The notes: generated by a model not told the origin, from the sequence alone. Shown: positions 10,961 to 54,315, numbered from the stretch's first letter. The stretch is DNA of 64,000 bases from Sulfolobales archaeon (GCA_038832865.1 JAWBJE010000003.1:30775-94774), one strand, 5' to 3'. Translations and numbers: made by a program.

Positions 10961-12047
10961 TTTGAGAGTCTACATCGTCGGGGGTTCGGTTGTTAAAGTA
11001 GATAGACACTTCGAATTAGGCTATAGAGACTTAGCCTATAGGGTGGTTAAAGACTGTCTTGAGTGTTCTGATGTAGATTACATAATAGTTTCGTCAGCCT
11101 TTCCAGAGCTGTCGGCACGCCAAGTAGACTTAGGTACTCATATAGTTCAGTGGATTGGTAGGAGGGTCCCTGTAGCTAGAGTAGAGTCCGGCGAGTCATC
11201 TGGCCTAGCCGCTATAGAGCTTGCCGCATCGTTGGTAGCCTCCGGTGCGTACAGACGAGTCATGGTCATCGGAGTCGAGAAAGTTACCGAATACCCAACT
11301 TATGTGGCTAACTACTTTTACTCATTGACTCTAGACTACGAATACGAGGTCCTTAGGGGCGTTTCCCCACCAGTTTACGCAGCTTTAGCCATGAAGGAGC
11401 TCATCAAGTCTGGTGTTAGAAGGGACTGCTTTAGTAACTGGGCGATTAGGATGCACGAAAACGCCATATCAGTGCCTCATGCGATGCTTAAGTTCAGGAT
11501 AACGCACGAGTCCTTTAAAGATGCTCAGGTACTATCGGATCCGCTAACGCTTTACGACAGCTTTGCTTTTGGTGATGGAGCCGCCGCTGTGGTAGTATCA
11601 TCGACACCAGACAGAAACAGTTCCTCCGTTGAAATAGTATTGAGTAAAACCGAGGTCGGTCTACCGGCATACGCTAGAGACAATGTATCAGACTTTCTCG
11701 CTTCCACGAAGCTCCTAAAGGAGGTTATTGAAAAGTTTGAACTAGACTTGAGGAAAGCGGCTGTCGAGCTCCACGATAGCTACACGACGTACCCTATAGC
11801 TATCCTCAGAAGTCTTGGATACGTAGACGATAGGTGCGACCTTACCGAGTTCGAGTTCTTGAATACGAGTGGTGGACTGAAAGCTAGAGGTCACCCAGTA
11901 GGTGCCACCGGCGTATATCAAGCTTACGAAGTCTTCAAGACTCTAACGGACGGCTTAGGTGGTAGGAGAGCTCTATCTGAGTACGGCTTAGTTCACTCGA
12001 TGAGCGGTCCTGATAACTTGTCTCGAGTGCTCGTCTTAAGGAGGTGA
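10953..12047 (+). CDS. acetyl-CoA C-acetyltransferase (thiolase)
   Basis: Thiolase-like protein ending in GGLKARGHPVGATG. Its start overlaps the HMGCS stop and its stop overlaps the DUF35 start. Confidence 0.8.
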   Translation: MVDLRVYIVGGSVVKVDRHFELGYRDLAYRVVKDCLECSDVDYIIVSSAFPELSARQVDLGTHIVQWIGRRVPVARVESGESSGLAAIELAASLVASGAYRRVMVIGVEKVTEYPTYVANYFYSLTLDYEYEVLRGVSPPVYAALAMKELIKSGVRRDCFSNWAIRMHENAISVPHAMLKFRITHESFKDAQVLSDPLTLYDSFAFGDGAAAVVVSSTPDRNSSSVEIVLSKTEVGLPAYARDNVSDFLASTKLLKEVIEKFELDLRKAAVELHDSYTTYPIAILRSLGYVDDRCDLTEFEFLNTSGGLKARGHPVGATGVYQAYEVFKTLTDGLGGRRALSEYGLVHSMSGPDNLSRVLVLRR

Positions 12048-12457
12048 GGTCCCTGAGGCTATCTGCCCCCCAGTTTTGGAGGGTTAAAGAGAACCAATAT
12101 AGACTATTCATAACGGTTTGCAATGAGTGCAGTAGAAGGACTATATTCAAGAGGCCCGTATGTCCCCACTGTGGGTCTAGTAAGGTCGAGTATATAGAGT
12201 CTTCGGGAACGGGGGTAATTGAGAGCTTTACTAAAGTCTACTATAAGACGAGCTCTAGTGAAGACAGATTACCCGAACTAGTTGGAGTAATCAGATTAAG
12301 CGAGGGGGTTAAAGTAATTGGAGAAATCGTTGGAGCGAGGGAGGACGAGCTCAGGGAGAATATGAAGGTCGAGGCCGTCTTAAGGAGGTACTTATCGGAC
12401 GACCCGCATGGAATCATATACTACGGCATAAAGTTTAAACCAGTTTTAACTCACTGA
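12044..12457 (+). CDS. DUF35 OB-fold/zinc-ribbon protein (scaffold of the thiolase/HMGCS complex)
   Basis: CNECSRRTIFKRPVCPHCGS zinc ribbon followed by an OB-fold-sized C-terminal part. Conserved operon position. Confidence 0.8.
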   Translation: MRSLRLSAPQFWRVKENQYRLFITVCNECSRRTIFKRPVCPHCGSSKVEYIESSGTGVIESFTKVYYKTSSSEDRLPELVGVIRLSEGVKVIGEIVGAREDELRENMKVEAVLRRYLSDDPHGIIYYGIKFKPVLTH

Positions 12458-12520
12458 AAGCTTCTATAATGCGATAAAAAAGGCTTATTTTGTGTATTAT
12501 ACTATATCCACGGTGTTCAT

Positions 12521-13732
12521 GTGGATTACGGTAGGTTCGTAGCTAAAGCATCTGAGCTTTTTAGAGCCTCAGAGATCCGTGAGTTACTTAAAGTCGTTGA
12601 AGCCCGAAAAGTTATCAGCTTTGCTGGAGGCTACCCAGACCCTCAGACTTTCCCGCGAGAGTCTCTAGCTAGGATAGCGTACGAAGTCATACTGAACTAC
12701 GGAGACAAAGCCCTTCAGTACTCCCCAACTAAAGGGGTCACTGCCTTCAGAGAGACTCTAGTTAAGTACTTAAAGAATAGTGGGGTGAAGGTGACTAGTG
12801 AAGACGACATCATAATTACGTCCGGTTCGCAGCAAGGACTGGACCTAGTATCTAGGACCCTAATTGACCCAGAGGACTATATAATTACGGAGAACCCAAC
12901 GTACTTGGCAGCTTTAACTGCCTTTAGGACGGCCAGGCCGAACATAATCGGGATACCCATTGATGGTAAAGGGATGAAGACCGAGGTACTTGAGGAAAGA
13001 CTTAAGGAATTGAAGTCTCTCGGAAAAAGAGTCAAGTTTCTATACACGATTCCGATAGCTCATAATCCGGCTGGAACCACCATGAGTCCGGACAGAAAGA
13101 AGCACTTACTTGAGCTAGCATCCCAGTACGACTTCATCGTTATCGAGGACGACCCGTACTCTTTCTTCGTGTACGACGAAGCCGATGTAACTCGGTTAAA
13201 GACTTTAGACCAAGAGGGGAGAGTCATCTACATGAGTACTCTAAGCAAAATACTGTCTCCAGGCCTTAGAGTTGGGTGGATGCTGGGTCCCCGCCAACTC
13301 ATCGACGTGTTCGAGAGAGCTAAGCAGAGCATGGACCTGCACACGTCCACTCTATCGCAGTACATAGCTAAGGAAGCACTAGAGAGAGGCGTCGTTAGTG
13401 AAACCATAGATAGGGCTAAGAGAGTGTATAGAGTGAAACGTGATACTATGTTGAGCGCGCTATCGGAGAACATGGTAGAAAACTCTTGGTGGGCTAAACC
13501 AGTAGGAGGGCTCTTCTTAATGGTATGGCTACCACCTGGTATCGACACTAAGGCCATGCTGCCTGAGGCTGTGGATGAGGGTGTAGTGTACGTACCTGGA
13601 GCGCCGTTCTTTGTCGATGAGAGCGGTAAGAACACTATGAGGCTGAACTTCAGCTATCCGAGCGTTGATGAAATAAGAACGGGAGTAGAGATCCTTGGAA
13701 AGTTGGTTAAGAAAAAAGTGGGGAAGGCGTGA
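12521..13732 (+). CDS. PLP-dependent aminotransferase, class I/II (AspC/LysN-like)
   Basis: About 400 aa fold-type I pattern: NPTY, HNPAGTTMS, and STLSKILSPGLRVGW containing the PLP-lysine motif. Confidence 0.8.
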   Translation: MDYGRFVAKASELFRASEIRELLKVVEARKVISFAGGYPDPQTFPRESLARIAYEVILNYGDKALQYSPTKGVTAFRETLVKYLKNSGVKVTSEDDIIITSGSQQGLDLVSRTLIDPEDYIITENPTYLAALTAFRTARPNIIGIPIDGKGMKTEVLEERLKELKSLGKRVKFLYTIPIAHNPAGTTMSPDRKKHLLELASQYDFIVIEDDPYSFFVYDEADVTRLKTLDQEGRVIYMSTLSKILSPGLRVGWMLGPRQLIDVFERAKQSMDLHTSTLSQYIAKEALERGVVSETIDRAKRVYRVKRDTMLSALSENMVENSWWAKPVGGLFLMVWLPPGIDTKAMLPEAVDEGVVYVPGAPFFVDESGKNTMRLNFSYPSVDEIRTGVEILGKLVKKKVGKA

Positions 13733-51850: not shown

Positions 51851-52170
51851 TGGTTTGAGGTTTCCGCCTAGAGGTTTAACGACCTTAGTACTAGGCTGTG
51901 TGCGTCTACTAGTCCGTAGCCGGTCTCCTGGTCGTAGCCTGGGAGACCTAGGTCTGCAGCTGTAGACCTGACTAAGTCTATTATCTGTGCTGGTGCGAGC
52001 TTCTGCCTACCTGAAGCAAGCCTTACCGCTTGAGCTAGTGCGACGGCGGCTGATGCGTGTGGGCAAGCCATGCTGGTACCGCTCGCTACGACGTGCTCGT
52101 TTCCTATCCACGTCGAAAGCACCCCGGACCCCGGTGCCACTACGTCCGGGTTCCTATTGCTCCAGCTGGG

Positions 52171-52419
52171 CTGTTTTCTTCTTGATGTTTTTAGGAAATG
52201 CTTATAAGCATTGTTTTTGCTCTATGTTTATTGGAAGCCCCGGTGGTGATGGGAGCATTGCTCCAAGCCACCCGGGCTTGAGCTAGATGGGAGCCCCGTG
52301 CCGTTGGGCTCGACAGCCACCCATGAACCCATACAGATACCGATATCTGTATGGGCGAGGTGGAAGTCCCTGGATACGAAAGAACATAAACAAACAAAAA
52401 TAAATATCCAGGGACAAAC
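52171..52419 (-). mobile_element. interrupting block I2 (249 nt, possibly two modules flanking a short exon remnant)
   Basis: The minus strand starts GTTTGTCCCTGGATA. Perfect 11-bp stem at 52366-52376/52405-52415. Perfect 12-bp hairpin at 52328-52355. 16-nt palindrome at 52197-52212. Ends AAACATCAAGAAGAAAACAG(CC). In-frame stops at 52228-52230 and 52222-52224. Confidence 0.45.
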
Positions 52420-52668
52420 GGTTGAGCCACCGGAGTTACCGGATGCCGCAACCAGGACTGCTCCAGCAGTATAGGCGTACCTAATAGCGTCGTAGACTAC
52501 AGAGCTAGAAGGTCCACCAAAGGACATCGAGATGACGTCGGCGTCGTCCTCCGTACCGACAACTCCATCGGGTCCCCTCACCGCCTCGATTATGCCTCGA
52601 GCTATGTCGCTCGCGTATCCCTTCCCAGAGGAGTCGAAGACTCTAACAGCGTACAGAACTACCTTAGG

Positions 52669-53039
52669 GCTGTTTTCTTTTTGATGTTTACTTGTGTTGT
52701 TCGTGTGCTTTGCGACTGTTCATGATCTTTTCGTCTCGGAGGTGTTTGAGTGCTATTAGGTATGCTGATGCTGTGTGCCTGTCCAAGCCGTGCTTCTCCA
52801 TTACGAATCTGTGCTCTTGCGAGCTGGAGGTCCCCCTGAGCTCATAAAGTTTTTAAACCTAAAAACTTATGTAGTTAGCGTGCCCTCGGGGGTTCCAAGA
52901 CCCGTGGAGCGGTGAACCGTAGGTGACTACGGGGAGCCTCCGCGGTGAGGGGCTCCGAGGAGACCGTTGAGAGGTAGATGGCTGGGAGGTTGGATATAAA
53001 AGAGCATGAAAGCCTATGAACAGCCATCTACTGAGAAAC
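52669..53039 (-). mobile_element. interrupting block I1 (371 nt), a cleanly delimited insertion in the subtilase gene
   Basis: The minus strand starts GTTTCTCAGTAGATGGCTG. Perfect 11-bp stem at 52974-52984/53021-53031. Ends AAACATCAAAAAGAAAACAGC. Deleting it joins ...GIAGVA to PKVVLYAVRV... in frame. No ORF, TIR or TSD. Confidence 0.55.
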
Positions 53040-54216
53040 GGCTACACCGGCGATACCCCAGTTGTTTAACCTAGCGGCGGCTATCCCGGCTACGTGTGTT
53101 CCATGTCCGTTCGGGTCAGCACACTGAGATAGGTCGCTACCTCTGTAGAGAGTGCCGTTTAACGAAGAAACACACCACACTACAGCACCGGCGAGGTCTT
53201 GGTGCGTGTAGTCTACACCTGTGTCCACTATGGCTAGCTGAACTACTACGCTGTACCCGTATGCTGAGTCACCGTACTGGACACTCGTCGCCCAGACCTT
53301 AGTAGCGTTGATCATCTGGACGTTCCACCCGATCGTGTCGCTGTACGCTGTAGATGGAGGTGGACTCGGGGTCTCCGAAGTGGGTACCACAACTCTTACG
53401 GTTACAGTAGCTGATGCGTAAACAGTACCCTGACTACTGGAGTCTACTACTGCTAGTGTCCAGCTGTAGGTGCCCGCCGCACTCGGTGCTGTGAACTCTA
53501 GCCTTCCTGAGTAGCTTGAGCTCGGTGGTAAAGCTACGGTGTCCGTTCTCGCGACAGCTATACCTCTCTCGTTCCGTAGCTCTACGATAACCGAGACGTC
53601 CACTTTACCTACGTTCTTGATAGTGAAGGATACCTCGCCGTTTGCACCTACAGCTACCGTGACATCCCTCGTGTAGTCAGTTATACTTACTCTAGGTCTA
53701 CTAGCTCCCGAAGGTTTACTGCTTATCTCTAGTGTTACGTCTTCCTCAACGTACCTAGCGAAAGCGAGTCCCCGCAGGCGCTCGACAGCGTTCTTCGGTA
53801 TTGACAGAACTACGACCCCTATCTCAGGTATCTCCTTCTCTACCGACCCAAACTGCCCTAAGACAGCTTTGACCTTTCTTAGGTTAAACCCTTGACGCAC
53901 GGCCACTACCGCCCTGACCTTGGTAACAGAAATAGCTTCCACGACAGTCGATAGTGTGGATACGACCACTAAGGTTACTAAAACTAGCACAACGATTCTC
54001 TCCATCGTTTCCACCAATTAATGAAGAGCTATCGTTCTATCACCACACCATTACAGTCTTCAAGCTCGCTACTATGGCTTCGCAGATCAGGACCTAATCA
54101 CTTTTACTGGAGGAAACATCTTAAACGATGAAATCTCCTACGACAGGTCCTCAGGAATTCGAGCAAACCTGTGTGGTGTTTAAGTGTACTAGAGCTACTA
54201 GCCTAGACCCTAGTAG

Positions 54217-54315
54217 TGCGGGGGGTGGGATTTGAACCCACGCAGGCCTACGCCATCGGGGCTCTCACTTTAGGTCCTGAGCCCGACCCCTTCGACCTGG
54301 CTCGGGCACCCCCGC
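54217..54315 (-). tRNA. tRNA-Leu (anticodon CAG) with a 14-nt intron at the canonical 37/38 position
   Basis: Reverse complement reads GCGGGGGTGCCCGAGCCAGGTCGAAGGGGTCGGGCTCAGG[ACCTAAAGTGAGAG]CCCCGATGGCGTAGGCCTGCGTGGGTTCAAATCCCACCCCCCGCA. CUCA pairs with the intron UGAG to form the central helix of a BHB. CCA is not encoded. Confidence 0.88.

Follow-up and report, generated by a model that had tools for sequence, protein, structure and literature searches.

Transposons of the IS607 family (e.g., IS607, IS1535 and ISC1926) combine a serine-recombinase TnpA with TnpB, lack terminal inverted repeats, generate no target-site duplication and insert at GG or (G)GG targets (PMC6188088). Chimeras of IS607 or IS605 elements with group I introns, known as IStrons, are found in bacteria (PMC4227781; bioRxiv 10.1101/2023.11.20.567912), and the preprint documents homing stimulated by TnpB for IS605-family elements. 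Among the TnpB proteins, the archaeal RHH/MazE-TnpB clade (RIIIr-4) has a rearranged RuvC-III motif with a histidine, no C4 zinc finger, and a small RHH or AbrB/MazE gene encoded upstream (Altae-Tran et al. 2023, PMC10691335). This clade is counted among the non-mobile TnpBs, with a toxin-antitoxin role proposed for it and a possible guide RNA located in the long 3' UTR (PMC10691335). The locus described here, in a Sulfolobales archaeon, very probably represents a recent, DNA-level insertion of a non-autonomous, internally deleted transposon (hereafter, block 1) into a subtilase gene that had already been inactivated by a related element (block 2).

The window, i.e., the whole 64-kb stretch of DNA that was analysed, carries on its minus strand (54005-51868) a gene for an S8 subtilase that is interrupted at GVA^PKV by the 371-nt block 1 (52669-53039). 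In the order in which the gene is read, the locus consists of the following features.

53040-54005, minus strand: subtilase segment 1, exon-like, with the signal peptide, the N-terminal domain and the catalytic Asp and His, ending in ...GIAGVA; corresponds to P0006 and aligns with P0001
52669-53039, plus strand: block 1, a 371-nt non-autonomous copy of a transposon denoted type A; in the element sense, GG^GCTGTTTTCTTTTTGATGTTT ... CTGAGAAAC^GG
52875-53039, plus strand: structured RNA module, possibly omega-RNA-like, with a long imperfect hairpin with a GNRA loop, a 12-bp terminal hairpin (52973-52984/53021-53032) and the tail UGAGAAAC that ends at the element boundary
52846-52868, no strand: AT-rich palindrome AAGTTTTTAAACCTAAAAACTT, a possible TATA-like promoter, some 25 nt ahead of the structured RNA, as read from the sequence
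52688-52849, minus strand: remnant of the 3' end of a TnpB-like gene, ...GTSSSQEHRFVMEKHGLDRHTASAYLIALKHLRDEKIMNSRKAHEQHK*, in the frame-1 translation; tblastn match to residues 319-358 of the type A protein P0121, 80 % identity, E 6e-14
52669-52689, plus strand: terminal 21-mer GCTGTTTTCTTYTTGATGTTT, common to blocks 1 and 2, the tnpA-proximal end of an IS607-type element
52420-52668, minus strand: subtilase segment 2, PKVVLYAVRV ... AASGNSGGST, frame 2, with 97.6-98.4 % DNA identity to the related contigs L001 and L002
52419-52420, no strand: junction of a 67-nt deletion, from which 22 codons, PLCPACYPEVI(A/T)VGAVDRYYTV, and 1 nt are gone; present in L001 at 11216-11282
52170-52419, plus strand: block 2, a type B copy of 250 nt, derived by deletion from an IS607-family element of 2.0 kb and oriented like block 1
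51868-52169, minus strand: subtilase segment 3, (P)SWSNRNPDVVAPG ... GTSMACPH ... stop, frame 2, with the ORF at 51868-52140; included in the orthologue alignment

Read downward, segment 1 proceeds to ...HGTHVAGIAAARLNNWGIAGVA and then into GTT TCT CAG TAG from position 53039, and a different frame resumes at 52668 (PKVVLYAVRVFDSSGKGY...). A sequence-only reading of this DNA had described the interruption in these terms, and its description is borne out in detail. Exon 1 (54005-53040) ends with NNWGIAGVA (GGT GTA GCC) before running into the stop codon, the downstream part restarts from 52668 with CCT AAG GTA GTT CTG TAC (PKVVLYAVRVFD), the length of the block (371 nt, or 3 x 123 + 2) is not a multiple of three, and the ambiguity of the junction amounts to a single C. 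The perfect 11-bp inverted repeat GTAGATGGCTG/CAGCCATCTAC (52974-52984/53021-53031), 8 nt from the gene-sense 5' end, and the GGAGCC..GGCTCC and CCGTAG-TCAC-CTACGG hairpins are all there. A protein search with the joined sequence as the query retrieves uninterrupted orthologues, namely, P0001 and P0002, of 531-532 aa, and P0007 (88, 77 and 60 % identity, respectively), which read ...GIAGVAPKVVLYAVRV... across the junction. Judging from these comparisons, the interruption is real and a chance resemblance is ruled out. Block 2, the 67-nt deletion beside it and the plus strand as the strongly folding one did not figure in the sequence-only reading. The window also includes an Rfam-called tRNA (54217-54315, minus strand; 99 nt, 46 bits) that is absent from the ARAGORN output and probably contains an intron or another unusual feature.

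The empty form of the block 1 site is found in several relatives. L001, which is 99.0-99.6 % identical to the window across flanks of about 19 kb, runs uninterrupted through the site (GGTGTCGCT^CCTAAGG). The site is also empty in the DNA of the approximately 90 % identical relatives L002/L003 and in contigs from four hot-spring metagenome runs, in which position 52668 is joined to 53044 and the remainder of the protease gene is intact. The eventuality, raised in the sequence-only reading, that strains or relatives might have no empty site is contradicted by all these alleles. One of the two options offered in that reading, a very recent insertion, is supported by the absence of the block from L001 at 99.5 % identity and by its membership in a multicopy mobile family. 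By these sequence comparisons, the insertion of block 1 is recent and polymorphic.

The flanks of block 1 also bear on another history, in which the filled allele was imported by homologous recombination, possibly by nuclease-stimulated homing, from a strain already filled at this site, so that no de novo transposition occurred in this lineage. The codons that touch the block are GTA GCC in the window vs GTC GCT in L001, L002 and the four metagenomes, all of which are empty alleles, and both changes are synonymous. In addition, the mismatches between the window and L001 are concentrated next to the block, with 10 in the adjoining 250 nt (53040-53290) vs about 1 per 300 nt in the alignment farther off or upstream of the gene; this cluster may represent a recombination or co-conversion tract, and the TnpB-stimulated homing mentioned above would provide a precedent. 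However, a donor allele was not found among the loci compared, and the extra divergence could reflect relaxed constraint in a pseudogene, segment 2 being likewise 1.6 % divergent. Furthermore, the GCC allele of the window creates a CCCC target, which alone is sufficient to explain a de novo insertion. Import of the filled allele hence appears unlikely, and de novo insertion of block 1 is the preferred reading.

Block 1 has many relatives. Full-length copies with 92-94 % identity are present in other genomes and metagenomes (L029, L034, L037, L042 and L046), and in hot-spring metagenomes the depth of block 1 contigs is about 10-50 times that of the flanks. The terminal 21-mer has two matches in the window against 0 expected, and a scan for it across one genome per species yielded 29 loci, 24 of these in MAGs of related Thermoproteota, where a single genome may have as many as six copies. 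The family splits into two subfamilies, type A, to which block 1 belongs, and type B, represented by block 2. The two blocks share a terminus of 21-23 nt (GGGCTGTTTTCTTYTTGATGTTT) and have the same layout at the other end, i.e., GTTT, two bases and an 11-bp hairpin. Among 27 copies (24 archaeal loci together with the window and L001 copies), GG precedes the GCTG end motif without exception, and GG follows the AAAC end in 11 of the 12 copies that were found without using that flank.

Comparison of the filled and empty sites reveals no target-site duplication at either block, so removal of the block restores the GVAP frame exactly; the filled sequence is simply the empty one with the element added, and there is no additional GG. 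No terminal inverted repeats are reported for block 1, the ends of which (GCTGTTTTCTT... and ...CTGAGAAAC) are alike only in a loose GTTT(T)C; by eye, TGTTT/AAACA motifs can be seen repeatedly close to either end. In gene-strand terms, the two insertions and the deletion junction are all at the middle of CCCC. The ambiguity of the junctions is 1 nt at both blocks (52169/52170 and 52419/52420 for block 2; 52668/52669 and 53039/53040 for block 1), with the elements exactly centred in GGGG. Thus, the locus provides clean pairs of filled and empty sites for two related elements and defines their exact ends and the GGGG target. On these sequence features, block 1 is an internally deleted, non-autonomous copy of a multicopy archaeal transposon that keeps both termini, the last ~50 codons of a TnpB-like gene, and an approximately 160-nt structured plus-strand RNA that reaches the element end.

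The closest match among the described transposons appears to be the IS607 family, with which block 1 shares the lack of terminal inverted repeats and target-site duplications and the insertion at GG; moreover, block 1 has both the termini and the target of the parent of block 2. Unlike typical members of that family, block 1 and its long relatives are without tnpA, and their nuclease gene points the opposite way. The junctions differ as well, in that the ambiguity is 1 nt rather than 2 nt and the target looks like the centre of GGGG. Exchange by a serine recombinase over a shared 2-bp GG core predicts a boundary ambiguity of 2 nt; the strict version of this model fits neither site. Block 1 also resembles MITEs and the peel-and-paste derivatives (PATEs) of IS200/IS605 elements in being short (371 nt), multicopy and non-coding, in having originated by internal deletion of a longer element with both ends kept, and, presumably, in being mobilised in trans. 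In contrast to classical MITEs, it has neither the defining inverted repeats nor a target-site duplication and retains an apparently independent structured RNA gene. A strict MITE is accordingly ruled out, and the accurate label is a non-autonomous deletion derivative.

The 1-nt ambiguity, which a 2-bp serine-recombinase crossover does not predict, would be compatible with a PATE proper, that is, a derivative of the IS200/IS605 type moved as single-stranded DNA by a Y1 HUH transposase and not by an IS607 serine recombinase. Precise insertion without target-site duplication or inverted repeats, the subterminal hairpin of block 1 and the presence of only a TnpB-like gene in the type A copies point in the same direction. 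However, among elements with these termini, the sole transposase found is a serine recombinase of the IS607 type, the GG/GGGG target is the one published for IS607 rather than a 4-5-nt motif on one side, and a Y1 tnpA is not seen in any of the loci. Mobilisation by a Y1 transposase is, on this evidence, improbable, and an IS607-like mode of insertion is preferred.

That serine recombinase is encoded by the autonomous type B copies, which are 2006 bp long and are found in L025 and L006. Their 215-aa protein, containing a resolvase domain (PF00239) and a MerR-like HTH, matches NF033518 'IS607 family transposase' with 236 bits (cut-off 110), and their 436-aa TnpB matches PF07282 and NF040570 'guided_TnpB' (103 bits, cut-off 100). 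Both genes read from the GCTGTTTTC end to the hairpin end. L025 belongs to the same MAG as L002, so that the autonomous copy was found in the 90 % relative and not in this genome; there is no tnpA within the 64-kb window.

The type A elements have a different composition. A metagenome scan with the type A hairpin end recovered 24 loci, mostly copies of 370-385 bp, and neither tnpA nor a canonical tnpB lies beside the right ends in any of them; none of the type A copies examined has its own transposase. The long copies with both block 1 ends (L052, 1521 bp; L040, 1522 bp; L050, 2825 bp) encode a protein of 367-372 aa on the opposite strand, with the stop codon abutting the GCTGTTTTC end; the ORF stops 15-100 nt from that terminus, which leaves a short 3' UTR. 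Small ORFs are located upstream of the TnpB-like gene, two of five showing weak Pfam matches to RHH (E ~0.01). The 2825-bp element of L050 (155-2979) contains two paralogous TnpB-like ORFs (377 and 323 aa) and an RHH-like ORF; from its sequence, it could be either a nested or tandem composite or an A1-type parent of block 1.

By sequence, the type A protein is only weakly TnpB-like, with a sub-threshold score of 29 bits against NF040570 (cut-off 100). Its family comprises more than 500 archaeal proteins, which are tagged PF27229 'SSO2105_N' and sometimes labelled 'IS605 OrfB' by JGI. The top Foldseek matches of its AlphaFold model (pLDDT 85, pTM 0.80) are Cas12k, Cas12f and the TnpBs of ISFba1 and ISDra2, with E values from 1e-9 to 2e-5. 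The residues D210, E274, D341 and H343 are invariant, the RuvC-III motif GLDRHTASAY includes an invariant histidine, and the protein has no zinc ribbon or C4 zinc finger. According to the model, the type A protein is a predicted nuclease of the TnpB/Cas12f fold (WED-REC-RuvC, with the catalytic residues) without a zinc finger. In its archaeal distribution, TnpB fold, missing C4 zinc finger, RuvC-III histidine and location downstream of a small RHH- or AbrB-like ORF, it agrees with the RHH/MazE-TnpB clade, and on these features, rather than through a shared accession, the type A family would appear to be identical with that clade (RIIIr-4). In contrast to the published description, the type A genes reside in an element that is multicopy, has defined ends and shows both polymorphic insertions and deletion derivatives, their 3' UTR is only 15-100 nt long, and the structured RNA is upstream and antisense.

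Within block 1, the two halves differ in structure. In the region of the gene remnant (52688-52849), folding detects no significant RNA structure on either strand, whereas the GC-rich half folds strongly. The stronger strand is the plus strand and not the gene strand. For 52869-53039, the plus strand has a minimum free energy of -74.6 kcal/mol (z -5.4) compared with -53.2 kcal/mol (z -2.9) for the minus strand. The plus strand folds better in all 17 type A copies and in 10 of 10 copies at subtype to genus-level divergence. The subtypes A1 and A2 keep the architecture of a long imperfect hairpin, a 12-bp terminal hairpin and an AAAC tail at the element boundary. The long hairpin is capped by GNRA loops (GUGA, GCAA, GCGA and GUAA), with compensatory changes in the helix, and the consensus helix includes two adjacent U.G pairs that are kept in 8-9 of 10 sequences and would be C.A mismatches on the other strand, which indicates that the RNA is plus-sense. 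The terminal hairpin alone is ambiguous in this respect (G.U in five copies favours plus, C.A in two favours minus), so the assignment to the plus strand comes from the long helix with its conserved U.G pairs and from the asymmetry in folding energy.

In L052, L040, L059 and L061-L064, the RNA precedes the TnpB-like ORF and is antisense to it. Beyond the type A copies, five loci, among them a Vulcanisaeta souniana chromosome and an Ignisphaera MAG, have the module in this arrangement with a PF27229 gene. A palindrome similar to the one in block 1 (CTACAGAAA..TTATAA..TTTCTGTAG) is located between the RNA and the small ORF/TnpB-like gene in L059 (1000-1060), L061, L062 and L064, about 130 nt upstream of the PF27229 ORF. 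This conserved palindrome may act as an archaeal promoter in both directions, or the small DNA-binding protein may use it as an operator; its counterpart at 52846-52868 is a candidate promoter of the RNA. The module matches no Rfam family in either the gathering scan or the scan at E<=10. Hot-spring metatranscriptomes (three from 2026 and one older, which contain no RNA reads of this organism) give 0-1 reads or contigs on the locus, and the RNA module is in none of the RNA runs.

Like the omega RNA (reRNA) of TnpB systems, the module is a scaffold of several hairpins whose end coincides with the transposon boundary, beyond which it would extend into the flank as a 3' guide, and the layout of its terminal hairpin and AAAC tail is that of the right end of the canonical IS607 tnpB element (block 2). 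Because of these parallels in position, terminal hairpin and tail, the structured RNA may, by analogy, be an omega/reRNA-like guide scaffold. Unlike omega RNA, it lies clear of the nuclease gene's 3' end and has a divergent orientation relative to that gene, so that encoding in the sense orientation, overlapping or downstream of the tnpB 3' end, does not apply to the type A RNA. To our knowledge, an RNA antisense to the TnpB-like gene is unlike any characterised TnpB system.

The second insertion is a remnant of a type B element. Block 2 aligns with both ends of the 2006-bp elements of L025 and L006, with about 1.75 kb deleted. What remains is approximately 65 nt from the left end and 185 nt from the right, the latter with the final ~50 codons of tnpB, read on the plus strand (94 % identity to residues 387-436), and four strong hairpins (fold z -8.4). 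It is present in L001 and is found neither in L002/L003 nor in the metagenome contigs. Since block 2 is common to the window and L001, it is older than block 1. Directly 5' of block 2 on the gene strand, between GGTGGCTCAACC and GTTTGTCCC, L001 has 67 nt and the window 0. One edge of the deletion is a further CC^CC site (TCAACC^CCGCTC) and the other coincides with the end of block 2, and such a loss is what a transposase-mediated adjacent deletion would be expected to leave. The missing length of 67 nt causes a frameshift. When both blocks are precisely removed in silico (...SGNSGGSTPAGAIGTRT* / ...GGSTPAGAIGTRT*), the frame is still broken and 22 codons are missing; hence the gene is dead, and neither excision nor splicing could bring the protease back.

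In L001, the same gene has been hit a third time, by an unrelated 1495-bp IS (11655-13149) that encodes a 396-aa TnpB (PF07282). This IS, with the ends TCACGCAACTG...GCTGAACCCC, is inserted in segment 3 at CAGCC^GCC, where the window is empty (52048/52049); the flanking codon is GCT in L001 vs GCC in the window and L002. Its candidacy as the parent of the blocks is ruled out, its ends being unrelated and DNA similarity nil. Just upstream of the intact protease gene of L002/L003 (8949-9683), there are degraded fragments that resemble the interior of block 2 and the L001 TnpB IS. From these remains, the protease neighbourhood of L002/L003 is one that has been struck repeatedly. The locus in the window is best annotated as a pseudogene with nested mobile-element damage, neither a split nor a spliced gene, and the NCBI label 'S8 family serine peptidase' for the fragments P0003 and P0006 is misleading.

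The other option in the sequence-only reading, that a working gene requires excision of the element, is not supported, on several counts. Such an element would be an intron (an archaeal bulge-helix-bulge intron, a group I or II intron, or an IStron-like self-splicing transposon) spliced from the mRNA so that the protease is still made. Its appeal stems from the exact restoration of the conserved GVAP strand, the abundance of stable hairpins in the block and the precedent of the bacterial IStrons; indeed, IStrons and the archaeal bulge-helix-bulge introns of protein genes (e.g., cbf5) likewise sit within a coding sequence whose frame is restored when they are removed exactly. However, block 1 differs from these in lacking a ribozyme or a bulge-helix-bulge motif. 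A gathering scan of the window with Rfam 15 gave just three tRNAs, with all intron families below threshold, and at E<=10 over 52100-53100 there were three chance-level hits, none to a group I or II intron. The archaeal bulge-helix-bulge motif consists of two 3-nt bulges separated by a 4-bp helix across both splice sites; in every frame-restoring register of both blocks, the central helix would have only 0-2 of the 4 pairs. Furthermore, the strand that folds strongly is not that of the mRNA but its complement, the joined form is found at the DNA level, and the second insertion and the 67-nt deletion have damaged the host gene beyond repair, with a frameshift left even when both blocks are taken out perfectly. 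On this sequence evidence block 1 is not an intron, and continued production of the protease through splicing is highly improbable. An assembly artefact, in which a repeat was mis-joined into the gene in a metagenome-assembled genome, is even harder to credit: block 1 is a high-copy repeat in which contigs frequently break, but neither junction shows a break in the window, colinearity with L001 extends along the flanks on either side, and the insertion is shown to be real by the independent MAG contig L058 (99.86 % identical), which has the same filled junction and reads through the 5' junction for 166 nt before stopping inside the block.

For the preferred reading, that of a transposon inserted into an already inactivated gene, the order of events can be derived from which genomes share each feature. 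Block 2 was inserted first; the lineage of the window then gained block 1 and the 67-nt adjacent deletion, and L001 instead gained the 1495-bp TnpB IS in segment 3. The type A parent is an element of about 1.5 kb carrying, on one strand, a small RHH/AbrB-like gene followed by the zinc-finger-less TnpB-like gene and, on the other strand, the ~160-nt structured RNA reading outward through one element end. Block 1 has lost these genes except for the last ~50 codons and kept both termini, the RNA and its putative promoter. Its termini (GCTGTTTTCTTYTTGATGTTT ... hairpin ... AAAC) and its target (the middle of GGGG, with no duplication) match those of the co-resident IS607-family element with its serine-recombinase TnpA and canonical TnpB. 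These shared termini and target suggest that block 1 is mobilised in trans by an IS607-type TnpA. Less certainly, the retained RNA could be a guide of the omega/reRNA type, in which case a 3' end that runs on into the flank (GGCUACACCGG...) would enable a TnpB-type nuclease to cleave empty alleles, favouring retention of the element.

The insertion of block 1 into a pseudogene is an ordinary, well-explained event; the architecture of the parent family is less ordinary. As a tentative generalisation, with the odds somewhat against it, the RHH/AbrB-associated, zinc-finger-less TnpB-like genes (PF27229) might be cargo of active transposons that borrow IS607-type ends and transposase, with a guide RNA that is divergent, antisense and upstream and is read outward past the element end; block 1 would then be a guide-RNA-only mini-element, made up of termini, promoter and omega-like RNA, that programs the nuclease in trans against its own empty sites. 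Through this locus, a TnpB clade that has been regarded as non-mobile is tied to a mobile element whose ends are IS607-like, and a conserved RNA of ~160 nt comes to light in an orientation that was not expected. Should this RNA serve as a guide, the nuclease of the type A family would be compact (~360 aa), thermophilic and without a zinc finger, and its guide would be encoded separately, a combination of interest for TnpB mining.
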